Assembly (NCBI GenBank): GCA_021160725.1
Contig: JAGHCA010000044.1
Span: forward strand, 1 to 51,549
DNA from: Dehalococcoidia bacterium
Lineage (GTDB): Bacteria; Chloroflexota; Dehalococcoidia; GIF9; AB-539-J10
DNA length: 51,549 bases
Reading direction: 5' to 3'
Position numbers and translations under genes: made by a program. Position 1 is the stretch's first letter. Each line of letters begins with the position of its first letter. Under the pieces are notes generated by a model, which worked only from the letters and a program-made list of their open reading frames with translations, searched no databases and had not been told where the DNA came from. Positions 19,024 to 39,995 of the stretch are shown piece after piece.

Positions 19024-20172
19024 GTGAAAACAATAAGTCCTTATAAAGAAGCTACGGATGTAATACTTGAGGCGGGCGGTGAGCCTCTTAAATTGTGTTA
19101 TCAGTGTGGCCTTTGCACTGCTGTTTGTCCCTGGAACGTAGTGCGCAGTTTCTTGGTTCGCCGCATCATGCATGAAGCTCAGCTTGGGGTAACTGATTTT
19201 GACAGCGAGGATGTCTGGACTTGTGCCACTTGTCGAGCTTGTGTCCAGCGTTGCCCTCGGGGCGTTGAGATAATAGATGTCGTGAGGGCTGTACGTCGAG
19301 TTGTGGCTAGTCTCGGCATTGGTGTTGTCCCTGATGCTCTTCGGATATCAGCTAAGAACATCGCCGGCGTAGGTAATCCCTTTGGTGAAGCGCCAGAAAA
19401 GCGTAATGACTGGGCTAAAGATCTGGGGGTGAAGGAGTTCGTCCCGGGTACTGAAATACTTTATTTCCCTTGCTGTGTTCCCTCCTATGATCCTGATGTG
19501 AAAACAGTAGCTCGATCTGTTGCCACGATCTTCAATAAGCTGGGGGTTGATTATGGCCTGATAAGCACAGAGGCAAGATGCTGTGGCGAGTCAATTAGGA
19601 AGGCTGGGCATGAAGACACTTTTCAAAACCTGGCTCACAATAATATTAACCTCTTTGCCAATAATGATGTCAAAACTGTGGTAGTTTCCTCCCCACACTG
19701 CTACCATACTTTCAGAAATGAGTATCCCGAGCTTGGAGGCAAATTCGAAGTAATTCATATTACCCAATACTTAGCTTCACTTATCGACGAAGGAAAATTG
19801 AAGTTCTCTAAGACGATGAATAAAAAGGTAATCTATTCTGATCCTTGCTATTTGGGGAGGCATAACAATGTCTATGACGAACCTAGAAAGATATTGCAGA
19901 GTATTCCCGGCCTGGAATTAATAGAATTTCCCGATGCCCGCGAGAATGCTCTTTGTTGTGGTGGTGGCGGCGGTAGAATCTGGATGGATACACCGAAAGG
20001 GGAAAGGTTCTCTGATATAAGGGTAGAGCAAGCTGTAGAGAAAGGCGCTGATATTATAGCCTTGGCGTGTCCTTACTGCTTCCTCAACTACAGGGATAGC
20101 GTGCTATCTATGGGCAAGGCAGAGACTATGCAGGTTAGAGATATCGCTGAGCTTGTTGCTGAAGCAGTGTAA
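19024..20172 (+). CDS. HdrD-like fused HdrC/HdrB protein (2x[4Fe-4S] + two CCG domains)
   Basis: 382 aa. Carries CYQCGLCTAVCP and CATCRACVQRCP, then CCG-domain motifs (PCCVPS, ARCCGES, DPCYLGRH, ALCCGGGGG, ACPYC). GTG start with a weak RBS. Confidence 0.85.
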   Translation: MKTISPYKEATDVILEAGGEPLKLCYQCGLCTAVCPWNVVRSFLVRRIMHEAQLGVTDFDSEDVWTCATCRACVQRCPRGVEIIDVVRAVRRVVASLGIGVVPDALRISAKNIAGVGNPFGEAPEKRNDWAKDLGVKEFVPGTEILYFPCCVPSYDPDVKTVARSVATIFNKLGVDYGLISTEARCCGESIRKAGHEDTFQNLAHNNINLFANNDVKTVVVSSPHCYHTFRNEYPELGGKFEVIHITQYLASLIDEGKLKFSKTMNKKVIYSDPCYLGRHNNVYDEPRKILQSIPGLELIEFPDARENALCCGGGGGRIWMDTPKGERFSDIRVEQAVEKGADIIALACPYCFLNYRDSVLSMGKAETMQVRDIAELVAEAV

Positions 20173-20188
20173 TAGCAGGGGAGCCAAA

Positions 20189-23100
20189 ATGGAAGAGGTA
20201 AAAATTGGTGTTTATGTCTGCTGGTGCGGCTTAAATATCGCTGGCACAGTGGATTCTGAAGAGGTGGCCAGGTATGCTGGAACCCTGCCCCATGTGGCGG
20301 TTGCCCGTGACTATAAGTATATGTGCTCCGATCCTGGACAGGATCTCATTAAGAATGATATTAAGAGGTTGGGGATTAATCGAGTTGTGGTTGCTTCCTG
20401 CTCACCGAGATTGCATGAACCCACGTTTCGCAAAGCTTGCCGGGATGCCGGACTGAACCCATATCTATATGAGCACGCAAATATCAGGGAGCACTGCTCT
20501 TGGCCCCATGCCACAGACAAGAATCGAGCCACAGAAAAGGCCAAGGACCTTGTACGTGCTGCAGTAAGGCGTGTCTATTATCAAGAACCTCTGGAGATTA
20601 AGGAGGTTCCGGTGAATCCCAATGTCTTGGTTGTGGGGGGTGGTATTGCTGGCATTCAAGCTGCTCTGGATATCGCTGATGGGGAGAAGAAAGTCTACAT
20701 GGTGGAACGGGACGCATCCATTGGTGGACATATGATTCAGCTTGATAGGACATTCCCCACTCTAGATTGCTCAGAGTGTATTCTCACTCCCAAGATGACC
20801 GATACTGGTCATCATCCTAACATCGAGTTAATGACCAACAGCGAAGTAGAGGAGGTTTCGGGGTATATCGGCAATTTCAATGTCAGGATCAGGAAAAAGC
20901 CCAGGTATGTCGATGTCGATAAATGTAACTCATGCGGTGAATGTGCCAAGGTGTGCCCTGTTGAAGTGCCCGATGAGTTTGAGATGGGCTTGAGTATGAG
21001 GAAAGCAGCATATTTACCTCTTCCTCAGGCTGTTCCCGCCGCTTTTGCCATTGACAAAAGAGGCACTGCGCCCTGCCGCATTGCTTGCCCCGCCGGTGTT
21101 AATGCTCAGGGCTACATCGCCCTTATTTCCCAGGGCAAGTTCAAGGAGGCTCTTGAGTTAGTGAGGAGAGCTATGCCATTTGCTGGAGTCCTGGGGCGTG
21201 TTTGTACTCATCCCTGTGAACTCGAATGCGAGCGAGGGAAGTTTGATGAACCCGTCAGCATCCGTGCTTTGAAACGCTTTATAGCTGACTATGAGTTGAA
21301 GACAGAGAGAGAGAAGGTGGTTCCCATTGAGACAACAAAAGATAGCAAGGTGGCTGTTATCGGTTCTGGCCCTGCCGGTCTTGCCTGTGCTTATGATTTG
21401 ATTAGAGAGGGTTATGCTGTTACCGTATTTGAGTCTCTGCCTCGGGCAGGCGGACTGCTTAGATATGGTATCCCTGAGTATAGGTTGCCCAAGGAGGTAC
21501 TTGATAACGACATAAGTTATATACAGGAATTAGGAGTAGAGATTAAAACGAAGTCACCAGTGGAGGATCTTGCCGAGGTTTTCAATCAGGGATATGCGGC
21601 CATCTTTATTGCCAGCGGTGCCCAAGGAAGCCAGAAAATGGGCATACCCGGTGAAGAAACGAGCGGTGTAATTCATGCCCTTGATTTTCTAAGAATGGTT
21701 AATGCTGGAGTGGACATCAAGTTAGGCAATAAAGTAGTGGTTGTCGGCGGTGGTAATGCTGCCATAGATGCTGCTAGGGCATCTTTACGACTTGGAGCCA
21801 GGGAAGTTACTGTTGTTTATCGCCGCTCTCGTGACGAAATGCCTGCTATAAGCAGCGAAGTTGAGGAAGCGGAGCATGAAGGAATTAAAATCCATTTTCT
21901 GGCCACACCCACCAAAATCCTGTCCAGAGATGGCCAATTGTCGGCTATAGAATGTATCACGATGAAGCTGGGTGAACCAGATGCCAGCGGTCGCCGTCGT
22001 CCTGTAGCTGTCAAGGGGACGGAATTCACCATGAATGTTGACAATGTCATCATTGCAATCGGTCAAACTGTGGACAAGACGGCACTGCCGAAGGAGCTTA
22101 ATTACACTAGTTGGGGCACACTGGAGGTTGATCCCGTCACCTTGCAAACCCATATTGCTGGTGTGTTCGCTGGCGGCGACGTAGTTTCTGGACCGGCTGA
22201 TGTCGTGGTAGCGGTTGCCGCTGGCAAGGAAGCAGCTATTTCCATTGATCGGTATCTAAGAGGAGTCAGTCTAACCGAGGAAAGGCAGGTAACACCGAAA
22301 CGTGTGGAAAACGTATCAAAGGAAAGAGCCCAGCTAAAAGCGAGAGCTTCTACCCCGCTGCTTAAGCTTGATGAAAGGAAAGGCTCCTTCGCTGAGGTTG
22401 AACTAAGCTTTGATGAAAAGACGGCAATTGAGGAGGCCAAACGCTGTCTGAACTGTGGCGTATGCTCGGAATGTTTGGAATGCGTGAAGGTCTGTGAGCA
22501 AGGGGCAATTAATCATGAAATGCAAGATGAGTTCGTTGAGGTCGAGGTAGGCTCGATGATTCTAGCTACTGGCTACCAGCAGTTTGACCCCAGTGTCATA
22601 CCTCAGTATGGATATAAGAAGTTCGATAATGTCCTGACCGGACTTGAATTCGAAAGGATAACCTGTGCAGGAGGGCCAACTCAAGGACGGATTCAACTCA
22701 AGGATGGTAGAGAACCGGAGAGTGTAGCCATAGTGCATTGTGTGGGCAGCCGGGACCAGAACTACCATGAGTATTGCTCTAGAGTATGCTGCATGTATGG
22801 ACTCAAATATGCCGAATTGATAAAAGAGTTTACCAAAGCAGAGGTATATGAATTTTATATTGACATGAGATGTTTTGGTGAGGCTTTTGAGGAATTCTAT
22901 AAACGTGTTTCCGAGATGGGAGTCAATTTCATCCGAGGAAAGGTGGCTAACATTACCGACCGGGTGATGGGCGAAGAGGAGAGGGGGAAATTAATTGTCA
23001 CAGCAGAGGATACGTTACTGGGAAAGATGATACGTGTCCCTGTGGATATGGTTATCCTGTGTGCGGCCCTAGAGGCACGCTCTGACGCGGCTGATGTGGC

Positions 23101-23554
23101 GAGCCTTTTTACCATAGGCCAAAGAGGAGACGGCTTCTTCTTGGAAACCCATCCTAAGCTTGCTCCAGTAAACACGCCAACAGATGGAGTTTTCATTGCT
23201 GGGTGCTGCGAAGCACCAAGAGACGTCCCTGATACTGTGGCGCAGGCTTCGGCAGCAGCATCCAAGGCTTTGTCATTGATAAGTAGAGGCAAGGTAACCA
23301 CTGAAGCAGCTGTGTCGTATGTGGATGAATCTATTTGCCATGGATGTGGCCGCTGCGAGGAAATCTGTACTTTTCATGCCCCCTCGATTATCAGAACGGA
23401 TGGACGCTTGGTTTCTAGCATAAACGAAGCTCTCTGTAAGGGATGTGGAGCATGCGCTGTTGTGTGTCCTACAGGGGCAGCACAAATCAAGCACTTCAAT
23501 ATGCAGGAAATAGAGGGTCTGGTCGACGGCTTGCTGGAGGTGCACCGTGGCTGA
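20189..23554 (+). CDS. HdrA-type flavoprotein with inserted GltD/NfnB-like NAD(P)H-flavin module
   Basis: 1121 aa from ATG 20189. The HdrA N-domain (VYVCWCGLNIAG), FAD motif VVGGGIAGIQAAL, DCSECILTPKM, CVGSRD..YCSRVCCMY and the C-terminal 2x[4Fe-4S] are collinear with the paralogue at 29946. Between them sits a GltD-like block (CPAGVNAQGY..GRVCTHPCELEC, VIGSGPAGLACA, VVGGGNAAIDAAR..VYRRS). Confidence 0.85.
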   Translation: MEEVKIGVYVCWCGLNIAGTVDSEEVARYAGTLPHVAVARDYKYMCSDPGQDLIKNDIKRLGINRVVVASCSPRLHEPTFRKACRDAGLNPYLYEHANIREHCSWPHATDKNRATEKAKDLVRAAVRRVYYQEPLEIKEVPVNPNVLVVGGGIAGIQAALDIADGEKKVYMVERDASIGGHMIQLDRTFPTLDCSECILTPKMTDTGHHPNIELMTNSEVEEVSGYIGNFNVRIRKKPRYVDVDKCNSCGECAKVCPVEVPDEFEMGLSMRKAAYLPLPQAVPAAFAIDKRGTAPCRIACPAGVNAQGYIALISQGKFKEALELVRRAMPFAGVLGRVCTHPCELECERGKFDEPVSIRALKRFIADYELKTEREKVVPIETTKDSKVAVIGSGPAGLACAYDLIREGYAVTVFESLPRAGGLLRYGIPEYRLPKEVLDNDISYIQELGVEIKTKSPVEDLAEVFNQGYAAIFIASGAQGSQKMGIPGEETSGVIHALDFLRMVNAGVDIKLGNKVVVVGGGNAAIDAARASLRLGAREVTVVYRRSRDEMPAISSEVEEAEHEGIKIHFLATPTKILSRDGQLSAIECITMKLGEPDASGRRRPVAVKGTEFTMNVDNVIIAIGQTVDKTALPKELNYTSWGTLEVDPVTLQTHIAGVFAGGDVVSGPADVVVAVAAGKEAAISIDRYLRGVSLTEERQVTPKRVENVSKERAQLKARASTPLLKLDERKGSFAEVELSFDEKTAIEEAKRCLNCGVCSECLECVKVCEQGAINHEMQDEFVEVEVGSMILATGYQQFDPSVIPQYGYKKFDNVLTGLEFERITCAGGPTQGRIQLKDGREPESVAIVHCVGSRDQNYHEYCSRVCCMYGLKYAELIKEFTKAEVYEFYIDMRCFGEAFEEFYKRVSEMGVNFIRGKVANITDRVMGEEERGKLIVTAEDTLLGKMIRVPVDMVILCAALEARSDAADVASLFTIGQRGDGFFLETHPKLAPVNTPTDGVFIAGCCEAPRDVPDTVAQASAAASKALSLISRGKVTTEAAVSYVDESICHGCGRCEEICTFHAPSIIRTDGRLVSSINEALCKGCGACAVVCPTGAAQIKHFNMQEIEGLVDGLLEVHRG
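21062..22440 (+). other. GltD/NfnB-like insertion within the HdrA hybrid
   Basis: Boundaries come from aligning the protein by eye with the uninterrupted paralogue (29946..31934). Collinearity is lost after ..AIDKRG and resumes around ..EEAKRCLNCGVC. Confidence 0.7.
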
Positions 23555-23990
23555 GTTTGAGCCTAAGATTATCGTTTTTGCATGTAACTGGTGTACCTAT
23601 GCCGCAGCCGATCTAGCCGGAACGAGCCGAGTTCAATATCCTCCTAATGCCTATATCGTCAGGATGATGTGCAGCGGGATGATAAATCCCAGCTATGTTC
23701 TTAGAGCCTTTGAAGATGGTGCAGACGGAGTTATAGTCTCTGGATGTCATTACACTGATTGCCATTACATCGATGGACCGGTAAAGTGCGATGCCATGTT
23801 TGCCAAGCTAAAGAGGTTAGTACATATTCTTGGCTTGGAGGACGAGAGGCTAAAGCGCGAGATGATATCTACCTCCGAGGGAACAGTATTTGCTAGAGTG
23901 GTTAGGGAGTTCGTAAGCGAGCTTAAGAGGCTAGGGCCTTCGCCTTTTTCATCTTTAAGAAATTCAAGAAAGGAGAAGGCAGTGGCTTGA
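23547..23990 (+). CDS. mvhD: MvhD (methyl-viologen-reducing hydrogenase delta subunit/FlpD family)
   Basis: 147 aa. Carries FACNWCTYAAADLAG, MCSG and GCHYTDCHY. GTG start in an 8-nt overlap (GTGGCTGA) with the hdrA stop. Confidence 0.9.
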   Translation: MAEFEPKIIVFACNWCTYAAADLAGTSRVQYPPNAYIVRMMCSGMINPSYVLRAFEDGADGVIVSGCHYTDCHYIDGPVKCDAMFAKLKRLVHILGLEDERLKREMISTSEGTVFARVVREFVSELKRLGPSPFSSLRNSRKEKAVA

Positions 23991-25153
23991 GTTTAGAGGA
24001 CATTATTCAAGAGACGAAAACCTATTACTGTCTGGAATGTGGCAAATGTACAAGTATATGTCCTGTCGCCAGATATGACCCAGCATTCTCTCCTCGGGCG
24101 ATGATTGAGAATGCTCTATTGGGACCTGAAGATGACTTGGTATTCAACCGAGAACTTTTTTCCTGCTTAACTTGTTACACTTGTCAACAGAGATGTCCCA
24201 GTGATGTCGATTTTCCTGTATTTGTGCGCAAAGCCCGCACCATAGCCCAAGATAATGGACAGCACGGAATTTGTGCCCACTCGGGGCAGTTGCAATCTCT
24301 GGCCAGGCTTATGACTAGCCCCGACATTAAGCAAAGGAGATTGGAATGGCTATCTGATAAATACCGCACCTCCGATGACTCCGATGTTCTTCTCTGGGTG
24401 GGGTGTGCTCCATATTTTGAAGCCATCTTTGAGGATATTGAGTTTAGAGCTCTTGATATCACTGAGGCCAGCTTGAAAATCTTGAATCTTCTGGGAATAG
24501 AGCCCAAGCTGCTTCCAGATGAGAAATGCTGTGGGCATGATGTGGTTTGGACTGGGGATGTAGAGACATTTAAGAAACTAGCCGAGCATAATGCGACCCA
24601 AATAAAAGAATCCGGGGTGCAGAAAATAATCTTCTCCTGCCCTGAAGGCTACCGAACATTGAAGCTGGATTATCCAAACTATGGCTTTGATGTTGGTTGT
24701 GAGTTACAACATATCTCTGAATTCTTGGCGGACAGAATCGAAAAGGGCGGCGTGAAGTTTAATGAAGTGAAAAAAAGGGTAACTTATCAGGATCCATGTA
24801 GGTTGGGAAGGCATCTCGGTATATATGATGCCCCCAGAAAAGTACTTAAATCTATTCCTGGCATAGAATTTGTCGAGATGCAATATAGTGGATGGGATGC
24901 TATTTGCTGTGGCACCAGCGCCTGGACTAACTGCGACTCGTATTCCAATATGATACGGGCGGAAAGGTTATCTGAGGCAACTGCCACCAAGGCTGAGACA
25001 CTCATAACATGCTGCCCCAAATGTCAAACCCATTTCAGATGCGCCATGACAGATAAGGGAAAAGAAAAGCGGTCGATGCCAAGTATTGAAGTTATGGATT
25101 TAGCAAACCTGGTAGCAAATGCTATTGAGGAAGGGAGTAATCTTAGCAAGTAA
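23987..25153 (+). CDS. HdrC/HdrB-like fused Fe-S/CCG-domain protein
   Basis: 388 aa. Carries CLECGKCTSICP and CLTCYTCQQRCP, plus CCG-domain motifs (EKCCGHD, QDPCRLGRH, AICCGTSAW, CCPKC). TTG start overlaps the mvhD stop (TTGA). Confidence 0.85.
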   Translation: MSLEDIIQETKTYYCLECGKCTSICPVARYDPAFSPRAMIENALLGPEDDLVFNRELFSCLTCYTCQQRCPSDVDFPVFVRKARTIAQDNGQHGICAHSGQLQSLARLMTSPDIKQRRLEWLSDKYRTSDDSDVLLWVGCAPYFEAIFEDIEFRALDITEASLKILNLLGIEPKLLPDEKCCGHDVVWTGDVETFKKLAEHNATQIKESGVQKIIFSCPEGYRTLKLDYPNYGFDVGCELQHISEFLADRIEKGGVKFNEVKKRVTYQDPCRLGRHLGIYDAPRKVLKSIPGIEFVEMQYSGWDAICCGTSAWTNCDSYSNMIRAERLSEATATKAETLITCCPKCQTHFRCAMTDKGKEKRSMPSIEVMDLANLVANAIEEGSNLSK

Positions 25154-25155: not shown

Positions 25156-27915
25156 ATGAGCAACAGGGAAAACGGACAGAAATCGGTGCTAGTAATTGGT
25201 GGTGGCATAGCGGGGATCCAGGCTTCGCTGGATCTAGCGAATATGGGCTTTAAGGTATATTTGGTGGAAAAATTGCCCAGCATCGGGGGAAGGATGGCGC
25301 AACTGGATAAGACTTTCCCTACTAATGATTGTGCCATGTGTATTTTGGCACCTAAGATGATTGAAGCGAGTACACATAATAACATAGAGCTTTTAACTTA
25401 TTGTGAAGTAGAAAAAGTTTCCGGGGAAGCAGGGAAATTTGAGGTCAAGGTAAAGAAAAAGTCATCTTTTGTCGATTGGGACAAATGTACAGGGTGCGGC
25501 CTCTGTATCGAAGGCTGCCCTGTCATTCTGCCAAATGAATTCGATCAAGGGATAGGAAAAAGAAAAGCTATATACATGCTATTTCCTCAGGCTGTTCCCA
25601 AGAAATGTGTTATAGACAAAAGGGAAGACCGCCCCTGTAAAGCGGCTTGCATGGATGCCTGTCCAGTTCATACTAACGTACCTGGGTACATCAAACTCGT
25701 TGCTGAAGGAGAGTTCAAAGAGGCTTATAAGCTTATAAGGGAGACAACCCCCCTGCCTGCATGTGTTGGCCGAGTATGCTATGCACCTTGTCAGGATGTC
25801 TGTAATCGCGGTGAAATAGATGAACCATTGTGTATCCGCGACATTAAGCGAGTTCCCTCGGATCAATGGAGTATCGAGGAACTTGAAGTACCGCCAATTA
25901 CAAAGACGGATAAAAAGGTAGCAGTTATAGGCTCGGGACCTGCAGGTCTTGCCGCTGCCAATGACCTTGCTCTAAAAGGGCACAGTGTGACTATCTTTGA
26001 GGCTCTTCCTGAACCCGGAGGTATGCTTCGCGTTGGCATACCGGAATATCGACTTCCCAAGGAAATTTTACGCCAGGAGATAGGCTACATTCAGAAACTT
26101 GGCGTGGAGGTAAAAACGGGCATTCGAGTCGGTAAAGATATCACCCTCGAAAAATTAAAAAAAGACTACGATGCCGTTTTCATTGCTATTGGGACACACG
26201 GTGGCATGAAGCTTGGGGTAGAGGGTGAAGATATTCCCGGAGTAATGGAGGGGATAGGATTTCTCCGCGCTGTAAATCTCGGGGAAAAGATAGATGTTGG
26301 AAATAGGGTAGCAGTGATTGGCGGAGGTAATACAGCTATAGATTGTGCCCGCACAGCAAAGCGCCTGGGAGCAAAAGAGGTGACCATTGTTTACCGCCGT
26401 TCTCGCGCTGAGATGCCAGCTTCCGCGGAGGAAGTGACAGCAGCCGAAGAAGAGGACATAAAGATCGAGTTTCTGACTATTCCAAGCCGCTTCTCTTCTG
26501 AGAATAAAAAGCTTGCCAAGATGGAATGTGTACGCATGAAGCTCGGGGAACCAGATGCCAGCGGGCGCCCTCGACCTATTCCCATTGAGGGTTCTGAATT
26601 TATTATTTCGGTGGATACAGTGATCACTGCATTGGGGCAGACTCCAGAAGCAGATTTTGTTAAACAGTCAGGAGTTTCGCTTTCCAAGAAGGGCACGATA
26701 GAAATTGATGCCAAGACTGGGGTGACCAGTGTTGAAGGAGTATTTGCTGGAGGTGATGTAGTTACAGGACCTGCTTTCGTGATTGATGCCATAGCGGCTG
26801 GGAAAAAGGCTGCTCGCTCTATGGATCAGTATTTGAATGGACAACCTCTTGAGCCAGAGGAAGAATGGAAGGAACCAGAGAAGCTGTCCCAGAAAGAGAT
26901 AGAGGATCTGAAGAAACGCTTTCCTTCCAGAAATAGAGTGGGGATGAGGAGGGAGCCAGCTAAGAAAAGAATCCAGGACTTTCGTGAGGTTGCTCTGGGG
27001 TATTCCTTAGAGGAAGCCTTAGAGGAAGCTTCACGCTGTTTGGCGGGACAAACAGAAGGGTGTATAGAATGCCATGAATGTGAACGACGATGCGAGCCAA
27101 AAGCAATAGTGTATACGAAGAAGGATGAAAGCATCGAGCTAAAGGTAGGCGCGATAATAGTTGCTTCAGGGCTTGGTTTATATGATATTTCAGCGCTACC
27201 AGAATATGGCTATGGCAAAATAAAAAACGTGATTAGCGCTATGGAATTTGAGAGATTGACTGCAGCATCTGGGCCTACTATGGGAGAACTCAGGCGTCCT
27301 TCGGATGGCAAGATACCTGAGAATATAGCTTTTATCCAATGTGTCGGCTCCCGCGATTTCAGGCATAAAGCTTATTGCTCCAGTGTCTGCTGTATGCATT
27401 CAACTAAGGAGGCAATGCTGGCTTTCGAACATCATCCGGGAACAAGATCCTTCATCTTCTACATGGATATGAGGGCTGTGGGCAAAAGATTTCAGGAATA
27501 TATTGCCAGGGCTAAGCAAGAATACAATGTCACTTATATCAGGAGTCGTCCCGGGAGGATTGAAGTTAATCCTGATAACGACAATCCTATTATCTGGTAT
27601 GAGGAAACCTCCAGTGGAGAAGTAAAGAAATTTGAGGTAGAGTTGGTAGTTCTTGCTCAAGCCATGATTCCTCAAATCACCCGGGAGTTGGCAGAAATAC
27701 TAGAAATAGAGTTAGACGAAGATGGCTTTGTGAGGACTGCAGATAGATTTCTGCAACCGCTGGACACTACAAAGCCAGGCATTTTTACCTGTGGCTATGT
27801 CCATAGCCCGCGGGACATCCCAGATTCGGTGACCCAGGCCTCTGGGGCAGCAGGCAGAGTAGCTGAAGAGATTGCTTCATCCCGATTGAATCGGGACTCG
27901 CAAGGAGGTAACTGA
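25156..27915 (+). CDS. HdrA-GltD hybrid lacking the HdrA N-terminal and C-terminal ferredoxin domains
   Basis: 919 aa. Starts directly at the FAD motif (VLVIGGGIAGIQASL). Has NDCAMCILAPKM and CTGCGLCIEGCP, a GltD block (CPVHTNVPGY..GRVCYAPCQDVC, VIGSGPAGLAAA, VIGGGNTAIDCAR..VYRRS), then CVGSRD..YCSSVCCMH. Ends after ..PRDIPDSVTQASGAAG. Confidence 0.85.
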   Translation: MSNRENGQKSVLVIGGGIAGIQASLDLANMGFKVYLVEKLPSIGGRMAQLDKTFPTNDCAMCILAPKMIEASTHNNIELLTYCEVEKVSGEAGKFEVKVKKKSSFVDWDKCTGCGLCIEGCPVILPNEFDQGIGKRKAIYMLFPQAVPKKCVIDKREDRPCKAACMDACPVHTNVPGYIKLVAEGEFKEAYKLIRETTPLPACVGRVCYAPCQDVCNRGEIDEPLCIRDIKRVPSDQWSIEELEVPPITKTDKKVAVIGSGPAGLAAANDLALKGHSVTIFEALPEPGGMLRVGIPEYRLPKEILRQEIGYIQKLGVEVKTGIRVGKDITLEKLKKDYDAVFIAIGTHGGMKLGVEGEDIPGVMEGIGFLRAVNLGEKIDVGNRVAVIGGGNTAIDCARTAKRLGAKEVTIVYRRSRAEMPASAEEVTAAEEEDIKIEFLTIPSRFSSENKKLAKMECVRMKLGEPDASGRPRPIPIEGSEFIISVDTVITALGQTPEADFVKQSGVSLSKKGTIEIDAKTGVTSVEGVFAGGDVVTGPAFVIDAIAAGKKAARSMDQYLNGQPLEPEEEWKEPEKLSQKEIEDLKKRFPSRNRVGMRREPAKKRIQDFREVALGYSLEEALEEASRCLAGQTEGCIECHECERRCEPKAIVYTKKDESIELKVGAIIVASGLGLYDISALPEYGYGKIKNVISAMEFERLTAASGPTMGELRRPSDGKIPENIAFIQCVGSRDFRHKAYCSSVCCMHSTKEAMLAFEHHPGTRSFIFYMDMRAVGKRFQEYIARAKQEYNVTYIRSRPGRIEVNPDNDNPIIWYEETSSGEVKKFEVELVVLAQAMIPQITRELAEILEIELDEDGFVRTADRFLQPLDTTKPGIFTCGYVHSPRDIPDSVTQASGAAGRVAEEIASSRLNRDSQGGN
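25624..27040 (+). other. GltD/NfnB-like insertion within the second HdrA hybrid
   Basis: Same position and motif order as the insertion at 21062-22440. Confidence 0.7.
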
Positions 27916-27916
27916 G

Positions 27917-29596
27917 GTGGATGAACCTCGTATTGGAGTTTTTGTTTGTCATTGCGGCATAAATATCGCGGCGTATGTCAATGTCCCAGAACTTGTTGAA
28001 TATGCCAAGGGGCTACCGAATGTAGTGCATGCTGAGCGTAATTTGTTTACCTGCTCTGAGGAAGGGATTTCAGCGATTAAAAGAGGCATTAAGGAATATA
28101 ACTTGAATCGGGTCCTGGTAGCTTCCTGTACACCTAGAACCCATGAGCCGCTCTTCAGGGCTGCTTGCGAAGATGCGGGCTTGAACAAGTACCTTTTTGA
28201 GTTTGTTAACATAAGAGATCAATGCTCCTGGGTGCATATGCGTGAGCCTGAGAGGGCTACAGAAAAGGCTAAAGACCTTGTAAGGATGGGAGTAGCCAAA
28301 GCTAGATTGCTGGAGCCGCTGGAGGAGATTGAGGTCAAGGTAGCTCCTTCTGCTTTGGTGATTGGAGGTGGGGTTGTTGGAATGGAGGCAGCTTTGAACT
28401 TGGCTAGGCAGGGCTTTGATATTCATTTAGTGGAAAAGGAACCAGAACTTGGGGGGACCCTTCGCAGCGTGTATAAACTTTTCCCCACGAATCAAGAAGC
28501 AACAAAGTTAATCAAACTGTTCGTCGAACAAATTGAGAAGCATCCCAAGATTAAGACCTATCTCTCGTCTAAAGTGAAGGAGGTAACTGGATTTATCGGT
28601 AACTTTGATGTCAATCTGGATGGGAAGGGAGGAGCGAGTAAATTCAATGTAGGTACTATTGTAGTGGCTACCGGGGCTGATAAGTTGAAGCCGGTAGGCC
28701 AATACGGCTACGGTAAGATGTCGAATGTCATCACTCAACTGGAGCTGGAGGAGCGTATGAAGAAAGGGGAGCCTTTGGGCCAGAATGTTGTGATGGTCAA
28801 TTGTGTAGGAGCGCGGATTCCCGAGAGAACTTATTGCAGTAGAATCTGCTGCATGACGGCAATAAAGAATGCCTCTCTCATTAAGGAATCAAACCCTGAA
28901 GCAAGAGTCTGGATACTGCACCGGGACCTTATGACTTATGGTGTGGACTTTGAGAAATATCAGCGAAGAGCCATGGAGATGGGGGTCAGATTTATTAGAT
29001 ATAGCTTAGAGAGTCCTCCTGAAGTTGTCGGGGACGGGAAAGTTGAGAGAATAAAGGTGTACCACGAGCTGTGGGGAAAGGACATAGAACTTCCCTGCGA
29101 TATGCTTGTTTTAACCACTCCTCTTATCGCTGGTGAGGATAATCAGGATATATCCAAGATGCTAAAAGTTTCCTTAGACGAGTTTGGTTTCTTCTTGGAA
29201 GCACATTTAAAACTCCGGCCTGTAGAATTCGCCATGGACGGCATTTACATTTGCGGCTCAGCACGCTGGCCCACAGATGTAGCTGAAGGAATTTCTCAAG
29301 CCTTCGCAGCTGCTTCAAAGGCAGCAGGCCCTCTTAGGTTGGGTTATGTCAAACCGGAGGCGATAAATGCCTGGATTGATGAAGATAAGTGCTCAGGCTG
29401 TGGGATTTGCGAACTTTTATGCCCCTTTCAAGCTATTGAGCTGCAGCCTAGAGATGATAGAAGGGTATCCCATGTCAGTGAAGTTGTGTGCAAGGGGTGT
29501 GGCACCTGTAGTGCCGCCTGTCCTTCGGGAGCAATTATTATGCACCACTTCACAAACGAGCAAATTCTAGCTCAGATAGAAGCTTTGTTCAGCTGA
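27917..29596 (+). CDS. HdrA-like protein with N- and C-terminal domains but no inserted ferredoxin or DCxxC pair
   Basis: 559 aa. Has the N-domain IGVFVCHCGINIAA, FAD motif LVIGGGVVGMEAAL, CVGAR..YCSRICCMT, and the C-terminal CSGCGICELLCP and CKGCGTCSAACP. At the DCxxC position it reads FPTNQEAT. GTG start 7 nt after AAGGAGG. Confidence 0.85.
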   Translation: MDEPRIGVFVCHCGINIAAYVNVPELVEYAKGLPNVVHAERNLFTCSEEGISAIKRGIKEYNLNRVLVASCTPRTHEPLFRAACEDAGLNKYLFEFVNIRDQCSWVHMREPERATEKAKDLVRMGVAKARLLEPLEEIEVKVAPSALVIGGGVVGMEAALNLARQGFDIHLVEKEPELGGTLRSVYKLFPTNQEATKLIKLFVEQIEKHPKIKTYLSSKVKEVTGFIGNFDVNLDGKGGASKFNVGTIVVATGADKLKPVGQYGYGKMSNVITQLELEERMKKGEPLGQNVVMVNCVGARIPERTYCSRICCMTAIKNASLIKESNPEARVWILHRDLMTYGVDFEKYQRRAMEMGVRFIRYSLESPPEVVGDGKVERIKVYHELWGKDIELPCDMLVLTTPLIAGEDNQDISKMLKVSLDEFGFFLEAHLKLRPVEFAMDGIYICGSARWPTDVAEGISQAFAAASKAAGPLRLGYVKPEAINAWIDEDKCSGCGICELLCPFQAIELQPRDDRRVSHVSEVVCKGCGTCSAACPSGAIIMHHFTNEQILAQIEALFS

Positions 29597-29706
29597 TAGA
29601 TAATTTGAACCCAAATGCAGCAAGTGCTCAGTATTGTATCTAGAGAGACTTCAGGAGTGAGAATTCATTCTTAGTGGACTCATTTGGAGGAGGGCCACAG
29701 TTGAAT

Positions 29707-29726
29707 TGCGTAAGTTTGGTATTATG
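29707..29726 (+). repeat. direct repeat copy 1 (TGCGTAAGTT[TGGT]ATTATG)
   Basis: Repeated at 29851-29866 without the TGGT. Both copies lie in the 349-bp gap before hdrA. Confidence 0.5.
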
Positions 29727-29850
29727 TTCTGTGGCGGAAGCAGAGTGGGTATTGCGCCGATAATGCTGATGGCTGGGATTCCAAGATGGGCGGTAATCGG
29801 ATTATCTCCGGGTTGCCTGCAAATCGGATACTTTGTATCTTGTATTTAAC

Positions 29851-29866
29851 TGCGTAAGTTATTATG
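29851..29866 (+). repeat. direct repeat copy 2 (TGCGTAAGTTATTATG)
   Basis: See copy 1. A second short direct repeat, AATCGGAT, occurs at 29795-29802 and 29822-29829. Confidence 0.5.
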
Positions 29867-29945
29867 ATTTTCCCTAGCTTGGCAGTAAAGGGGTGGTTTG
29901 ATACGACATTATGCAATGAACTGTGGTTAAAAAGTGACTGTTCAT

Positions 29946-31934
29946 ATGGAAAATGAGAAAAAGGTCGGGGTTTACATCTGCCACTGTGGGTTGAACATCG
30001 CTGGCACGGTTGATGTGGCAGAGCTAGCGAAATATGCTGCAACCCTGCCTAACGTAGTGATTTCCCGTGACTACCGGTATATGTGCTCGGACCCTGGCCA
30101 GGATCTCATTAAGAATGATATCAAGGAACTGGGACTTAATCGAGTTGTTGTCGCCTCTTGTTCGCCACGGATGCATGAACTCACCTTCCGTAAAGCTTGC
30201 CAGAGTGCCGGTTTGAACCCTTATCTATATGAGCAAGCCAACATCAGGGAGCATTGCTCTTGGGTCCATGCGGATAAAAAGCAGGGCACCAAGAAAGCTA
30301 AGGACCTGGTTCGTGCTGCTGTGCAGCGTGTTTGCTATCACGAGCCTTTGGAGGTCAAAGAAATACCAGTCAATCCTAACACTCTGGTTGTGGGTGGTGG
30401 GATTGCAGGGATAGAGGCGGCCCTGAAATTAGCTAACGGTGGCCACAAGGTTTACTTAGTAGAGAAAGAGCCGTCAATCGGGGGGCATATGATTCAACTG
30501 GACACTACTTTCCCTACCCTTGATTGTTCCGAATGTATTATGACTCCCAAGATGAGTGAGGTAGGACATCATCCTAATATCGAGCTTCTGGCTTATAGTG
30601 AAGTGGAGGAAGTATCAGGGTCTGTGGGTAATTTCAAGGTAAAGGTGAAGAAAAAGGCAAGGTATGTGGACGAAGGCAAATGTATTGGCTGTGGAATTTG
30701 TGAGCAGAAATGTCCTTGGAAGGTGCCGAGCGAGTTCGAAATGGGCTTGGGGAAGAGGGTAGCTATTTATATTCCCTTCGCTCAAGCTATCCCGAATGTT
30801 GCTACGATAGACAAAGACCACTGTGTCTATATTCAATCGGGGGGGAAGAAGTGTGGTGCTTGCATCAAATTCTGTGAGGCCGGGGCTATAGATTTTGACC
30901 AGACGGACCAAATTATTGAGCTAGAAGTGGGTGCGATTATACTGGCTACGGGGTATGATCTCTTGGACCCGAGTCAGATACCGCAATATGGCTACGGGAG
31001 ATACGATAATGTCATAACTGCTCTTGAATTTGAGAGAATGACCTGTGCTGCGGGGCCGAGTTCTGGCAAAATTCAACTTAAGGATGGGAGAGTACCCCAG
31101 AGCGCAGCCATCATTCATTGTGTTGGCAGCCGGGATAAAAATTACCGTGAATATTGCTCCAAAATATGCTGTATGTACGCACTGAAGCATGCCCATCATC
31201 TCAGGGAGAAAATAAATGCCGATGTATATGAAATGTATATTGATATGCGTTGCACAGGGGATGGTTATGAAGAGTTCTATGAGCGTGTTTCTGCGGAAGG
31301 TGTTGTTTTTATAAAAGGCAAGGTAGCTGAGGTGACTGATAGAGCCATTACGGAGGAGGAGAAAGGAAAACTTGTTGTGGTAGCCGAGGATACTCTGCTA
31401 GGAAGACTAGTACGTATTCCTGTGGATATGGTTATTCTTTGTCCTGCCATGATACCGCGGGCTGATGCAGGAGAAGTCGCCAGGATGTTTTCCATTACCC
31501 AGAAGGCAACGGGTTTCTTTCTGGAGCGTCATGCCAAGCTTGAACCTCAAGTTTCAGCCATGGATGGTATTTTTCTGGCCGGTTGTTGCCAATGTCCCAA
31601 GGATATTCCTGATTCTGTGTCTCACGGTAGAGCGGCAGCCGCGGCTGCACTGGAGATAATAGATAGAGGTAGTGTTGTCACTGAAGCTGCCATCGCTTGT
31701 GTAGACAAAACCCTATGTCATGGCTGTGGAATATGTGAAGACATTTGTGAATTTCGAGCTGCAAAGGTGATTCTTAAAGGCGGTAGGATGATATCTACAG
31801 TGAATGAAGCGTTGTGCAAAGGCTGCGGTGTCTGTGCTGTTGCCTGTCCTAGCGGTGCCATGTCCATCAAACATTTCACTCGTGATGAACTATCTACCAT
31901 GGTTAAGGCGCTAGCCCCAGTAGAAAATGGCTGA
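29946..31934 (+). CDS. hdrA: heterodisulfide reductase subunit A (canonical architecture)
   Basis: About 662 aa from ATG 29946 (GTG 29934 is possible). N-domain VYICHCGLNIAG, VVGGGIAGIEAAL, DCSECIMTPKM, inserted ferredoxin CIGCGICEQKCP..CGACIKFC, CVGSRD..YCSKICCMY, and C-terminal CHGCGICEDIC and CKGCGVCAVACP. Confidence 0.9.
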   Translation: MENEKKVGVYICHCGLNIAGTVDVAELAKYAATLPNVVISRDYRYMCSDPGQDLIKNDIKELGLNRVVVASCSPRMHELTFRKACQSAGLNPYLYEQANIREHCSWVHADKKQGTKKAKDLVRAAVQRVCYHEPLEVKEIPVNPNTLVVGGGIAGIEAALKLANGGHKVYLVEKEPSIGGHMIQLDTTFPTLDCSECIMTPKMSEVGHHPNIELLAYSEVEEVSGSVGNFKVKVKKKARYVDEGKCIGCGICEQKCPWKVPSEFEMGLGKRVAIYIPFAQAIPNVATIDKDHCVYIQSGGKKCGACIKFCEAGAIDFDQTDQIIELEVGAIILATGYDLLDPSQIPQYGYGRYDNVITALEFERMTCAAGPSSGKIQLKDGRVPQSAAIIHCVGSRDKNYREYCSKICCMYALKHAHHLREKINADVYEMYIDMRCTGDGYEEFYERVSAEGVVFIKGKVAEVTDRAITEEEKGKLVVVAEDTLLGRLVRIPVDMVILCPAMIPRADAGEVARMFSITQKATGFFLERHAKLEPQVSAMDGIFLAGCCQCPKDIPDSVSHGRAAAAAALEIIDRGSVVTEAAIACVDKTLCHGCGICEDICEFRAAKVILKGGRMISTVNEALCKGCGVCAVACPSGAMSIKHFTRDELSTMVKALAPVENG

Positions 31935-33510
31935 ATTTGAACCTCGCATTATTGTTTTTGCCTGCAACTGGTGTACTTATGCTGCAGCAGATATAGCTGG
32001 CACAAACCGTATCCAATATCCCCCCAATGTAAGAATTATAAGGGTTATGTGTAGCGGCATGGTGGCTCCGGAACATATTTCTCTGGCGCTTGAGAGTGGA
32101 GCTGACGGTGTTTTAGTGGCCGGTTGCCATCCAGGCGACTGTCACTATATTTCGGGTAATTTAAAGGCGGAAGAAAGGGTCCAGATGGTCAGTAAGGTCA
32201 CCAATATGCTTGGTATTGAGGAGGAGAGGGTAAGGCTTAAGTGGATAGCTACATCTGAGGGAACAATATTTGCCCAGACTATCAGAGATATGGTGGAGGA
32301 GCTTAAAAAATTGGGGCCTTCACCTTTCAGGGAATCTCGACAAGTTAGTCAAGAAAAACCTGCTCTGGATTTAGAGGACATTCTTCAAGAGACCAAGGCT
32401 TACTATTGTCTGGAGTGCAGCAAGTGCACCAGCATATGCCCTGTGGCTAAGTATGATTCATCCTGTTCCCCACGGTCTGTGATTGAGGATGTTGCATTGG
32501 GGCTGGAAAGAGAAAGTACTCGTGATAAGAAACTTTTCTCTTGCCTTGGCTGTTATGCCTGCTCTCTAAGATGTCCCACCGATGTTGACTTCCCGGCTTT
32601 CGTGCAAAGAGTCAGGGCATTGGCTTTTGGTGCTGATGAGCATGGCTGCCCGGCTCACGGTGGTTTCTTACACTCCGTTACACGGCTGATGGCACGGTCC
32701 CCGTATAAACAGAAAAGGTTGGGATGGTTAACCAAGGAGTACAGGGTATCTGACAATAGTGATATCTTATACTTTGTTGGGTGTGCACCTTATTTTGACC
32801 CAGTTTTTCAGTATCTGGAGCTGAGAACGCTCGATATTACAGAGGCAAGCTTGAAGATACTAAATCACTTGGGGGTGGAGCCCATGCTACTTCCCGATGA
32901 GAAATGTTGCGGACATGATGCGTTGTGGACAGGAGATACAGAGACCTTTCAGAGACTAGCTGAACATAATACAAGGGTGATAAGGGAAGCCGGGATAAAG
33001 AAGATTATCTTCTCATGCCCTGAAGGTTATCGTACATTTAAGCTAGACTATCCTAAGTATGGGTTTAAGCTGGACTGTGAGTTGCAGCATATCTCCGAAT
33101 TTGTAGCTGGGAAGATGGGGGAGCAGGAATTGAAATTGAAGGAGTTCAGGAAGAAGGTAACTTATCAAGACCCATGCCGATTAGGGAGGCATCTCGGCAT
33201 TTATGATTCTCCGAGGCAATTACTTCAGGCTATTCCTGGGATAGAGCTAGCCGAGATGGAAAAGAACAGGGAGTATGCTCTTTGCTGTGGGACGAGCGCT
33301 TTTACCAACTGTGATTTGTACTCTCATGAAATGAGGGTTGGGCGATTGCAGGAGGCGAAAGCTACTGGTGCAGAAATTCTGGTGACTGACTGCCCAAAGT
33401 GCCAGATACACTTTAGATGTGCTATGAATAACAAGGGCGAAGAAAAAGGCCCTGATATAAATATTGAGGTGATGGACTTGGCAAAGCTTGTAGCGGATGC
33501 TTTAGAATAA
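31927..33510 (+). CDS. MvhD fused to HdrC/HdrB-like CCG protein
   Basis: 527 aa. The N-terminal ~140 aa are MvhD (FACNWCTYAAADIAG, GCHPGDCHY). The remainder is collinear with the separate gene 23987..25153 (CLECSKCTSICP, CLGCYACSLRCP, EKCCGHD, QDPCRLGRH, ALCCGTSAF). ATGGCTGA overlap with hdrA. Confidence 0.85.
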   Translation: MAEFEPRIIVFACNWCTYAAADIAGTNRIQYPPNVRIIRVMCSGMVAPEHISLALESGADGVLVAGCHPGDCHYISGNLKAEERVQMVSKVTNMLGIEEERVRLKWIATSEGTIFAQTIRDMVEELKKLGPSPFRESRQVSQEKPALDLEDILQETKAYYCLECSKCTSICPVAKYDSSCSPRSVIEDVALGLERESTRDKKLFSCLGCYACSLRCPTDVDFPAFVQRVRALAFGADEHGCPAHGGFLHSVTRLMARSPYKQKRLGWLTKEYRVSDNSDILYFVGCAPYFDPVFQYLELRTLDITEASLKILNHLGVEPMLLPDEKCCGHDALWTGDTETFQRLAEHNTRVIREAGIKKIIFSCPEGYRTFKLDYPKYGFKLDCELQHISEFVAGKMGEQELKLKEFRKKVTYQDPCRLGRHLGIYDSPRQLLQAIPGIELAEMEKNREYALCCGTSAFTNCDLYSHEMRVGRLQEAKATGAEILVTDCPKCQIHFRCAMNNKGEEKGPDINIEVMDLAKLVADALE

Positions 33511-33568: not shown

Positions 33569-34447
33569 ATGTGTAAAATAGTAAAAAAGGAGATTCTTGT
33601 CCCCAACACAATTTATCTTAAAGTAGAAGCTGCCGAAATTGCCCGAAAAGCTAAACCAGGGCAGTTTGTCATATTGCGGGTAGATGAAGTTGGGGAGAGA
33701 TTTCCCTTGTCGCTAGCTGGTTGGGATGAGGATAGAGGGACACTCGAAATTCTCTTTCTTATCATGGGGAAAAGTACTATGAAACTCTCTGCTCTTGATG
33801 AGGGCGACTGTATTAGGGATATAGTGGGTCCCCTGGGCAGGCCTACCGAAATTGAATCCTATGGCAATATTCTGTCTGTCTGTAGCACATTTGGAATTGG
33901 TCCTATGGTACCTATGATAAAGGCTCTCAAGGAAAAGGGCAACAAAGTAGTTACAGCCATGGAAGCTAGAGATAAAGCATCTCTATTCTGGGAGGACAGA
34001 TTAAAGAGTGTGAGCGATGAAACATACGTTGTTTTAGGAGATGGGAGCCTTGGGAAACACAGGCGAGTGCGCGAATTTATCACAGAATACCTGGAATCCG
34101 GGAACAAGGTCGATAGGGTCTTCGCATTCGGGCGTATATTTATGATGATGGACTGCTGCAGGGCGACAAAGCCGTTTGATATTAAGACGATTGTCGGTCT
34201 CACGCCAATAATGGTTGATGGTACAGGCATGTGTGGTTGTTGCCGTGTCTCTGTAGGCGGTGAAACGAAATTTACCTGCGTTGACGGCCCCGAATTTGAT
34301 GGTCACTTAGTGGATTGGGAGTTGCTCATTAAGCGGAAACGGGCTTATCTGAGGGAAGAGGCACAGGCATTTAACCTATGGCAACCTGATAACCTGCGGC
34401 GGATTGCAGAGTTATCTGAATTACCCGAGCGAATCTCTGTAATGTAA
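33569..34447 (+). CDS. nfnA: NfnA/SudB-like FAD + [2Fe-2S] subunit (ferredoxin-NADP reductase-like)
   Basis: 292 aa. Carries PGQFVILRVDEVGERFPLSLA and the C-terminal MVDGTGMCGCCRVSVGGETKFTCVDGPEF. Confidence 0.85.
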   Translation: MCKIVKKEILVPNTIYLKVEAAEIARKAKPGQFVILRVDEVGERFPLSLAGWDEDRGTLEILFLIMGKSTMKLSALDEGDCIRDIVGPLGRPTEIESYGNILSVCSTFGIGPMVPMIKALKEKGNKVVTAMEARDKASLFWEDRLKSVSDETYVVLGDGSLGKHRRVREFITEYLESGNKVDRVFAFGRIFMMMDCCRATKPFDIKTIVGLTPIMVDGTGMCGCCRVSVGGETKFTCVDGPEFDGHLVDWELLIKRKRAYLREEAQAFNLWQPDNLRRIAELSELPERISVM

Positions 34448-39993: not shown

Positions 39994-39995
39994 GT

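Follow-up and report, generated by a model that had tools for sequence, protein, structure and literature searches.

HdrA is the core of a main machine of flavin-based electron bifurcation, and natural variants with a single bifurcation unit reveal which domains make such a unit functional. An operon in the DNA of a Dehalococcoidia bacterium analyzed here (the window: the whole stretch of 51,549 nt, contig JAGHCA010000044.1 of assembly GCA_021160725.1) contains four HdrA paralogues, including full-length ones at 20153 and 29934. Two adjacent genes, in the following called gene A and gene B, code for HdrA-like proteins with complementary domain contents. This raises the question whether both products form one asymmetric dimer, as proposed in an earlier note on this DNA, in which they were described as two half-proteins of a divided hybrid. 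The features of the locus are listed in Table 1.

Table 1. Positions of genes, domains and motifs of the A/B locus in the window.
Feature	Position	Strand	Basis
MvhD-like [2Fe-2S] adaptor gene	23547..23990	+	Pfam FlpD PF02662, E=2.6e-47
HdrD-like subunit, 2x[4Fe-4S] ferredoxin and two CCG domains	23987..25153	+	Pfam CCG PF02754, E=7.9e-28; Fer4_8
Gene A, A-type HdrA, 919 aa, ATG start	25156..27915	+	motif, Pfam and PDB comparisons
Gene A, FPTNDCAMC, Cys pair C59/C62	25315..25341	+	motif alignment
Gene A, inserted ferredoxin, first half, CTGCGLCIEGC, C111-C121	25450..25629	+	PDB alignment, Cys map
Gene A, NfnB/GltD-like insertion, aa ~159-632	25630..27051	+	Pfam and PDB matches
Gene A, inserted ferredoxin, second half, CIECHECERRC, C636-C646	27052..27141	+	Cys map
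Gene A, core-cluster motif CVGSRD..YCSSVCCMHSTK, C729/C741/C745/C746, followed by K751	27340..27408	+	alignment
A/B translational-coupling junction	27902..27919	+	sequence read
Gene B, B-type HdrA, 559 aa, GTG start	27917..29596	+	motif, Pfam and PDB comparisons
Gene B, N-terminal domain, conserved C11, C13, C46, C71, C103	27917..28336	+	PDB alignment, Cys map
Gene B, FPTNQEAT, lost Cys-pair site, E194/K197 (5ODC numbering)	28481..28504	+	alignment
Gene B, core-cluster motif CVGAR..YCSRICCMTAIK, C296/C307/C311/C312, and K317	28802..28867	+	alignment
Gene B, C-terminal 2x[4Fe-4S] ferredoxin, CSGCGICELLC and CKGCGTCSAAC	29333..29593	+	Pfam Fer4_21/Fer4_7

Gene A starts 2 nt behind the stop codon of the upstream HdrD-like gene. 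In phmmer comparisons with the PDB, the protein matched 5odc_A with E=1.5e-123, and its residue 10 aligned to about residue 142 of the solved HdrA 8rvv_A; the N-terminal domain is therefore absent, and the protein indeed begins at the FAD motif (Rossmann motif GGGIAG, aa 15-20), as the earlier note had claimed. The HdrA-like portion stops at about residue 568 of the HdrA of 5ODC, so that the C-terminal 2x[4Fe-4S] domain is absent, too. This absence had been recognized before, but the protein does not end right after ...GAAG and continues for 19 more residues. Overall, gene A corresponds to residues ~142-568 of 5ODC plus an NfnB insert. Its Cys pair is equivalent to C194/C197 of the HdrA of M. 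thermolithotrophicus, Cys202/205 of that of M. marburgensis, and Cys59/Cys62 of BamE. K751 corresponds to Lys280 of BamE, the lysine at N5 of the flavin, and takes position 276 after removal of the insert.

The insert is a complete NfnB/GltD-like module located between the CTGCGLCIEGC and CIECHECERRC motifs of the inserted ferredoxin. It comprises a Cys-rich Fer4_20 region, a FAD motif at aa 259-264 (GSGPAG) and one for NAD(P)H at aa 389-394 (GGGNTA), with Pfam matches to PF14691 (E=2.4e-19) and PF07992 (E=2.3e-52) and PDB matches to NfnB 4ylf_B (E=1.7e-112, residues 46-462 of 468) and 9bov_A (E=3.2e-141). Of the inventory given before, the Cys pair and the GltD insertion could be confirmed, while both 4-Cys ferredoxin motifs are kept and not just the first one.

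Gene B (phmmer match to 5odc_A with E=9.5e-149; FAD Rossmann motif GGGVVG, aa 150-155) aligns to residues 1-235 and 319-650 of the HdrA of 5ODC, so the inserted ferredoxin domain of ~80 aa is the only missing part. The alignment agrees with the previous description of a protein having the N-domain and the C-terminal ferredoxin, lacking the inserted ferredoxin and reading FPTNQEAT at the Cys-pair site. The sensitive comparison suggested in the earlier note (phmmer against the PDB, domain-segment searches, and an AF2/Foldseek model) detected none of the domains missing from A and B. Both proteins belong to the HdrA superfamily according to their GxGxxG FAD motif, the homology to the TrxR-like fold and the core 4-Cys motif. 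They are not canonical four-domain HdrA proteins, with A lacking the N-domain and the C-terminal ferredoxin and B lacking the Cys pair and the inserted ferredoxin, and the NCBIfam HdrA models NF041778, NF040770 and NF041891 all scored far below their cut-offs (e.g., 523-568 vs 1100 bits). The term half-proteins does not apply, since A and B each keep a complete TrxR-like FAD core and their own 4-Cys cluster motif.

At the junction, the Shine-Dalgarno sequence AAGGAGG (27902-27908) lies inside the end of gene A and is followed by the stop codon TGA (27913-27915), a single base, and the GTG of gene B at 27917, exactly the 1-nt spacing described earlier. Such a pair could be an artefact if one hybrid HdrA gene had been broken recently, had suffered a frameshift or had been mis-assembled; the superficial look of a divided hybrid is all that speaks for this. 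We rejected this explanation as virtually impossible: each gene codes for a complete FAD core, the same pair of ORFs (904-945 aa plus 559-566 aa) is found again in dozens of independent assemblies, and the core of gene A is just ~38% identical to that of the operon's full-length hybrid, and of full-length hybrids generally, vs 59-60% to A-types free of the insert. The hybrid of the operon, the first in the window (20153-23554, 1133 aa), is a full-length HdrA-NfnB hybrid with N-terminal domain and C-terminal ferredoxin. In a neighbor-joining tree of the cores, A-type and B-type proteins form separate clades (B-type 91/91 pure, A-type 63/64), with gene A lying within the A-type clade. Judged by their sequences, A and B thus represent old, separate paralogue clades, and the notion of one hybrid divided in two had to be abandoned.

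To what extent A and B depend on each other can be seen from the occurrence of their relatives. The survey comprised 160 related loci, 80 from a search of genomes with gene B and 80 from a search of metagenomes with gene A, and the relatives span at least eight phyla. Every B-type gene of the genome loci with enough upstream sequence either had an A-type gene in front of it or made up the C-terminal part of a fused A-B protein. In the metagenome loci, 64 NfnB-carrying A-type genes have a B-type gene directly downstream and three reach the contig end; two were marked as lacking an Hdr gene downstream, one of them due to an ORF-calling artefact (L124). The metagenomic contig L132, with an A-type gene and no B nearby, is the sole real exception among the 160 loci, so that orthologues of A and B, whose solitary occurrence had been named as a check, are otherwise paired or fused. 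The gap between the stop of A and the start of B has a median of 7 nt (123 pairs). The pattern recurs in more than 140 independent contigs and hence far above chance. A-B fusions make up at least 120 cluster representatives, in some of which the NfnB insert (1511-1518 aa) or MvhD is part of the same chain, and their domain order in the surveyed loci is A-B in 63 of 63 cases. Gene A without its insert, joined to gene B, can be aligned collinearly to 43 natural fusions (46-51% identity), all cofactor Cys residues being invariant. The complementary arrangement of adjacent or fused A and B units is real and widespread, and the pair in the window conforms to it in its complementary accessory domains and direct adjacency.

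Abundant natural fusions collinear with the window pair support physical pairing of A and B. Alternatively, A and B might form homodimers or pair with a full-length HdrA (20153 or 29934), their adjacency reflecting co-regulation. Four HdrA paralogues in one operon make other pairings conceivable, and L132 provides an A-type gene that manages without B. We nevertheless consider this highly improbable, not only in view of the fusions but also because A and B are adjacent in loci devoid of any full-length HdrA (e.g., L005, L010, L016). A dimer of two A chains would be without the arm, and one of two B chains without Cys pair and low-potential exit. Moreover, the complementarity of Cys pair and N-domain is absolute: both Cys residues of the pair are present in 151/151 A-type and 53/53 canonical modules and in 0/189 B-type modules. 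With orthologues practically never alone, the missing domains not found and fusions abundant, the view of an obligate asymmetric heterodimer is supported.

For structure prediction, gene A without its insert and gene B were joined to an artificial single chain, for which AF2 yielded a pLDDT of 75.8 and a pTM of 0.74; the latter hints weakly at how the two cores might be placed relative to each other. In Foldseek, part of the model matched the rigid HdrA core chain 8rwn_A (428 aa, TM 0.91, 48% identity), and full HdrA chains were matched with TM 0.70-0.75.

A possible parallel is offered by QmoA and QmoB of sulfate reducers, HdrA-like flavoproteins that differ in domain content within one complex. 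The idea of an HdrA heterodimer is already published, from genomes in 2022 and for a fused relative by cryo-EM in 2026; the pair described here is a split version carrying an NfnB module. Chadwick et al. (2022) proposed, by genomic inference, that tandem or fused HdrA proteins with complementary N-domain and Cys197 are symmetry-breaking heterodimers, among them the tandem HdrA5/6 and 12/13 and the fusions HdrA3/4 of ANME as well as the fused HdrA of the Moorella thermoacetica MetFV-HdrABC-MvhD complex (PMC9012536). In these paralogues, the C-terminal ferredoxin is complementary, too, as in A and B. The ANME fusions have the N-domain unit first (B-A, PMC9012536), in contrast to the A-B order found in our survey, and their hosts are archaea, whereas the host of the A/B pair is a bacterium.

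The closest structural counterpart is BamE of the class II benzoyl-CoA reductase of Geobacter metallireducens, a 'fused HdrA dimer' according to cryo-EM, whose N-terminal unit contains the bifurcating FAD (Lys280) and the pair Cys59-Cys62, whose second FAD is non-bifurcating and 'primarily structural', and whose clusters are designated E1-E7 (bioRxiv 10.64898/2026.04.10.717634, April 2026 preprint). Like A and B together, BamE has two TrxR-like FAD cores with complementary accessory domains. Its N-terminal unit resembles gene A in the Cys pair with the same residue numbers, the N5 lysine, the inserted ferredoxin and a core cluster feeding the HdrD-like BamD, and its second unit resembles gene B in the C-terminal ferredoxin, which in BamE connects via the MvhD-like adaptor BamF. 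According to the motifs, gene A should bind two FAD and five [4Fe-4S] clusters and gene B one FAD and four [4Fe-4S] clusters. Counting Cys motifs without the insert gives one core and two inserted-ferredoxin clusters for A and one N-domain, one core and two C-terminal clusters for B; these seven clusters and two FAD equal the inventory of BamE, the collinearity resting on the residue numbers of the preprint and the cluster count. Unlike the single polypeptide BamE, A and B are encoded by separate, translationally coupled genes, and gene A carries the NfnB-like FAD/NAD(P)H module of ~470 aa inside its inserted ferredoxin. BamBC (tungsten) and BamGHI, partners of BamE, are absent from the A/B locus. 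We estimate with a probability of about 80% that A and B together make up one asymmetric dimer of HdrA type, a split version of the BamE type, with A as the bifurcating subunit.

Canonical methanogen HdrA (5ODC, 7BKB, 8RVU, 9SW6) shares the fold and the cofactor motifs with A and B but combines four domains in each chain, and its symmetric dimer contains two bifurcation units instead of one. The published mobile-arm model places the Cys pair beside the FAD of the partner (PMC12350162, PMC13580544). In the canonical homodimer, the two units are domain-swapped: the arm carried by one protomer serves the FAD of its partner together with the latter's Cys pair, core cluster and inserted ferredoxin. 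In the mechanism proposed here, the A/B pair would retain exactly one such unit. The cofactors would indeed be split between two chains, as claimed before, but not symmetrically, one of the two domain-swapped units being kept. Gene A would provide the bifurcating FAD with K751 as N5 lysine and the Cys pair C59/C62, its core cluster would feed an HdrD-like subunit as high-potential exit, and its inserted ferredoxin would be the low-potential exit. Gene B would contribute the mobile arm, made up of the cluster in its N-terminal domain and of the C-terminal 2x[4Fe-4S] domain, which would dock an MvhD-type adaptor, while its own FAD core and cluster would mainly act as a non-bifurcating dimer scaffold rather than as a second bifurcation site. 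The split into A and B sets the boundary of the unit at the gene level and agrees with the mobile arm seen by cryo-EM, gene A resembling the rigid bifurcating core and gene B the carrier of arm and scaffold core.

Candidate partners for both ends are encoded nearby. The HdrD-like subunit upstream of gene A is probably its high-potential exit partner; the order HdrD-A-B is kept in loci L001-L003, L069 and L081-L149. The MvhD-like adaptor at 23547 is the nearest partner candidate for the arm of gene B, an uncertain assignment as it may belong to the upstream full-length hybrid instead. No MvhD gene is present downstream of gene B within the window; in other phyla, MvhD follows or is fused to B-type or fused genes in 86 of 113 assessable cases.

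The flavin core of gene B might do more than hold the dimer together. The Cys residues of the core cluster are conserved in 151/151 A-type and 175/175 B-type modules, the latter also retaining their FAD motifs, and the N5 lysine in 151/151 and 163/175, respectively. With all four Cys residues kept and usually the lysine as well (K317 in gene B), the FAD and cluster of B are more constrained than expected for a purely structural role; BamE, in contrast, has Gln768 at this position, a loss not shared by gene B. The A:B heterodimer could thus form with the core of B as a second working electron-transfer site, e.g., by leading electrons via FAD and [4Fe-4S] without bifurcation to a second HdrD-like subunit, for which the HdrD-like genes of the operon at 19024, 23987 and 31927 (two stand-alone genes and one MvhD-HdrD fusion) are possible sources. 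We regard this as unlikely. [quoted passage not shown] The equivalent FAD of BamE lies outside the path on which the electrons branch and has been interpreted as structural, and relaxation of the lysine (12/175 substituted) is confined to B-type modules.

With A as the bifurcating and B as the arm-carrying subunit, the low-potential exit of gene A would be wired into the inserted NfnB-like FAD/NAD(P)H module, which would replace free ferredoxin or act besides it. The complex would therefore probably couple three things: NAD(P)(H), a donor or acceptor connected through MvhD, and the substrate reduced by the HdrD-like subunit; substrates and direction of electron flow are guesses. HdrA-NfnB hybrids are known from HdrL of Desulfobacterium autotrophicum (Strittmatter et al. 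2009, PMC2702500) and HdrA9-11 of ANME-1 (PMC9012536). Like gene A, these proteins have an NfnB/GltD-like NAD(P)H-flavin module of ~470-500 aa in the inserted ferredoxin, and the first hybrid in the window is of their kind. HdrL is assumed to keep the N-terminal domain and the C-terminal ferredoxin. Compared with this full-length framework, gene A has lost both terminal domains and would depend on B, and its flavin core groups with the A-types free of the insert and not with full-length hybrids.

Speculatively, and with rather low odds, two bifurcation modules might operate in series on gene A, the NfnB-type and the HdrA-type flavins having their low-potential branches joined via the inserted ferredoxin. 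No free ferredoxin would be released, and NAD(P)H chemistry would have a direct connection to the MvhD/hydrogenase arm of B and the HdrD-like exit. If so, the 'coupled bifurcation modules' recently described in class II benzoyl-CoA reductase would have a second, independent case here, one occurring widely among Dehalococcoidia, Desulfobacterota and Thermoplasmata. The NfnB-carrying gene A suggests that subsurface Dehalococcoidia have a bifurcation linked to NAD(P)(H). Also, many genes annotated as 'CoB-CoM heterodisulfide reductase subunit A family' are better read as A-type/B-type pairs or A-B fusions than as independent HdrA copies, which concerns genomes of Chloroflexota, Bathyarchaeia, Asgard archaea and Desulfobacterota.

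Genes A and B, on a contig of an uncultured bacterium of the Dehalococcoidia (Chloroflexota), lie inside a tightly packed cluster of hdr genes on the plus strand, where A starts 2 nt past the stop codon of the preceding HdrD gene. Residue 10 of A already aligns with residue 142 of the solved HdrA chain 8rvv_A and its C-terminal end is equivalent to residue ~568 of 5ODC HdrA, which confirms the earlier note in that both the N-terminal domain and the C-terminal ferredoxin are missing. A does not end right after the motif GAAG, as had been stated, since 19 more residues follow. Within A, the first 4-Cys motif of the inserted ferredoxin is followed by a complete NfnB-like module (aa ~159–632; E=1.7e-112 to the NfnB chain 4ylf_B), the second 4-Cys motif and the remaining flavin core; thus, besides the first ferredoxin motif described before, the second one is also kept. 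B aligns to residues 1–235 and 319–650 of 5ODC and therefore lacks only the inserted ferredoxin, with FPTNQEAT at the site where other HdrA proteins have FPTxDCxxC, in agreement with the domain content initially proposed. The 1-nt spacing and the AAGGAGG motif within the end of A were found as described (AAGGAGG at 27902–27908, TGA at 27913–27915, one base, GTG start codon of B at 27917). The term "half-proteins" is a misnomer, because both A and B possess an entire FAD core and the 4-Cys cluster belonging to it. A database entry with 100% identity to the B protein carries the NCBI name [quoted passage not shown], and a dedicated model for the A-type (core and inserted ferredoxin, lacking both N-terminal domain and C-terminal ferredoxin) or the B-type (complementary domain set) is absent from NCBIfam.

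Features of the hdr gene cluster
Feature	Position	Strand	Length
HdrD-like	19024–20172	+	
Full-length HdrA with NfnB/GltD-like insert	20153–23554	+	1133 aa
MvhD	23547–23990	+	
HdrD-like	23987–25153	+	
Gene A	25156–27915	+	919 aa
Gene B	27917–29596	+	559 aa
Non-coding gap between B and canonical HdrA	29597–29933		337 nt
Canonical HdrA	29934–31934	+	
MvhD-HdrD fusion	31927–33510	+	
NfnA-like	33569–34447	+	
NfnB-like	34450–35871	+	

For analysis of the conservation of the pair, genomes were scanned with B and metagenomes with A, yielding 80 loci each, which were annotated by phmmer searches with domain segments. The loci originate from Chloroflexota, Bathyarchaeia, Asgard archaea, Desulfobacterota, Thermoplasmata/Methanomassiliicoccales, Cloacimonadota, Aminicenantes, and Clostridia. 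Each B-type module with enough upstream sequence has an A-type gene on its 5′ side or is the C-terminal part of an A-B polypeptide of ~1000 aa, or 1350–1655 aa with NfnB insert. Among the metagenome loci found with A, 64 A-type genes with the NfnB module are directly followed by B, and three reach the contig end. The distance between the stop codon of A and the start codon of B has a median of 7 nt (n=123). Co-occurrence and adjacency, which the earlier note had suggested to check, hold across the 160 loci with L132 as the sole real exception. Its A-type gene (L132:4601–7357), 918 aa long and sharing 76% identity with A, has neither a B-type nor an HdrD gene in its neighbourhood, and the next gene is convergent and molybdopterin/formate-dehydrogenase-like; the locus may have been rearranged or be a chimera of the assembly. 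With one fusion as query, at least 120 cluster representatives of the fused form were retrieved, and A (insert removed) plus B is collinear with 43 fusions at 46–51% identity, all cofactor cysteines being invariant.

The presence of the cysteine pair was counted by alignment column. Both cysteines are found in 151/151 A-type and 53/53 canonical modules (all four domains on one chain), while neither occurs in any of 189 B-type modules; the complementarity between A-type and B-type is absolute. The four core-cluster cysteines are kept in all 151 A-type and all 175 B-type modules. No A-type or canonical module has a substitution at the flavin-N5 lysine (Lys409 in 5ODC); 12 of 175 B-type modules do, with B of the window retaining the lysine (K317). 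In bifurcating HdrA-type flavins, the flavin N5 is contacted by such a lysine, namely Lys280 of BamE, the HdrA-like subunit of class II benzoyl-CoA reductase (2026 preprint).

According to cryo-EM of methanogen Hdr, the MvhD cluster and FAD′ flank the partner's Cys pair, the high-potential electron passes to HdrBC via the partner's core cluster, and the low-potential electron reaches the inserted ferredoxin of the partner from a C-terminal "shuttle" cluster (PMC12350162, PMC13580544). Projected onto the pair, bifurcation would take place in the core of A, and B would bear the arm and contribute a second core; exactly one of the two domain-swapped units would be kept. The low-potential exit of A would lead into its NfnB-like FAD/NAD(P)H module. 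The asymmetric architecture has been shown experimentally in a fused relative, BamE, described as a "fused HdrA dimer": its N-terminal unit carries the bifurcating FAD and the Cys59-Cys62 pair, and the second FAD sits away from the branch point and was considered mainly structural (2026 preprint). The seven [4Fe-4S] clusters of BamE equal the count predicted from motifs for A (without insert) plus B. Judged from the sequences, the reading of A and B as a putative asymmetric heterodimer with cofactors partitioned between the chains is supported. In an AF2 model of A (minus insert) and B, concatenated as a single chain and predicted with the fusion alignment (pLDDT 75.8, pTM 0.74), Foldseek matched 428-aa rigid-core HdrA chains (8rwn_A) with TM 0.91 and 48% identity and full HdrA chains with TM 0.70–0.75; the rigid-core match would fall, we infer, on the A half.

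In some loci, MvhD is fused to the C-terminus of B-type or fused A-B proteins of 1000–1163 aa (L020, L025, L075, and proteins P0232 and P0238), further gene-fusion evidence suggesting that MvhD docks on the B-type unit. In the Desulfobacterota loci L047, L048, L056, L059, L062, and L064, the MvhD ORFs adjoining fused A-B genes have only 73–89 aa, a size that would be compatible with a reading frame broken at an in-frame UGA encoding selenocysteine, like Sec19 of BamF; the clusters may be of the bam type.

The pair had been presented as a divided hybrid. A recent truncation or division of the operon's own full-length hybrid was ruled out, because the core of A is only ~38% identical to this protein vs 59–60% to insert-free A-types from other phyla, and because of its tree position. 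In a neighbour-joining tree of 168 non-redundant core domains, calculated with no bootstrap and from biased sampling, B-type modules form one pure clade (91/91), A-type modules a separate one (63/64), and canonical and full-length hybrid HdrA a third. Core identities and clades thus indicate that A and B are an old paralogue pair. In the A clade, the NfnB insert has a scattered distribution. For the first HdrA of the operon, sister contigs have forms with insert (1121–1134 aa) and without (656–670 aa; L001:4438, L082:1397, and L104:1451 compared), and the core identity of 0.76–0.78 between both forms implies that gain or loss of this insert takes little evolutionary time.

Chadwick et al. (2022; PMC9012536) reported HdrA paralogues, arranged in tandem or fused, that complement each other in N-domain, Cys197, and C-terminal ferredoxin, among them the fusion HdrA of Moorella MetFV-Hdr, and inferred heterodimers; they also described NfnB insertions in some ANME-1 HdrA. 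The name HdrL dates from 2009 (PMC2702500). The heterodimer concept is already published, and the split, NfnB-carrying A/B pair, of which no description in Dehalococcoidia was found in the literature, is a further case of a known arrangement.

The gap after B contains no MvhD remnant (tblastn, best E=1.9); most sister contigs retain an equivalent gap of about 175–380 nt. Rfam gave zero matches across the cluster including this gap, scans for sigma-70 promoters and for terminators did not rise above background in the cluster, and of 40 matches to the sigma-54 consensus (28 expected) none was convincingly placed upstream of hdr genes. Directly upstream of the cluster (13193–18868, +), a sigma-54 factor (372 aa; Pfam match to the DNA-binding domain only), a histidine kinase with a fused [FeFe]-hydrogenase-like domain (14314–16260, +), a sigma-54-dependent response regulator (16196–17602, +), and a receiver-TPR protein are encoded, which may be an H2- or redox-sensing regulon. 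Further upstream, a T-box leader (388–637, +; RF00230, 100.6 bits) precedes a Lyase_1 gene (748–2103), which looks like argininosuccinate lyase, and argininosuccinate synthase (2114–3388). Two [NiFe]-hydrogenase clusters are located downstream. The first (35989–43625, −) comprises genes for both hydrogenase subunits (large and small), NuoE, a 663-aa protein similar to NuoG/formate dehydrogenase, and a 1029-aa NuoF-GltD fusion. It resembles a hydrogenase linked to NAD(P), which may be bifurcating and carries a further NfnB-like module. The second (43985–48716, +) encodes a GltD-plus-ferredoxin protein (605 aa), then MvhD and MvhG/MvhA-like [NiFe]-hydrogenase subunits (Mvh-type hydrogenase at 46261–48716); a GltD-ferredoxin and MvhD gene pair is also found directly 5′ of HdrA genes of the fused A-B form at several loci of Bathyarchaeia (L052, L058, L061, L070, L076, and L078 listed).
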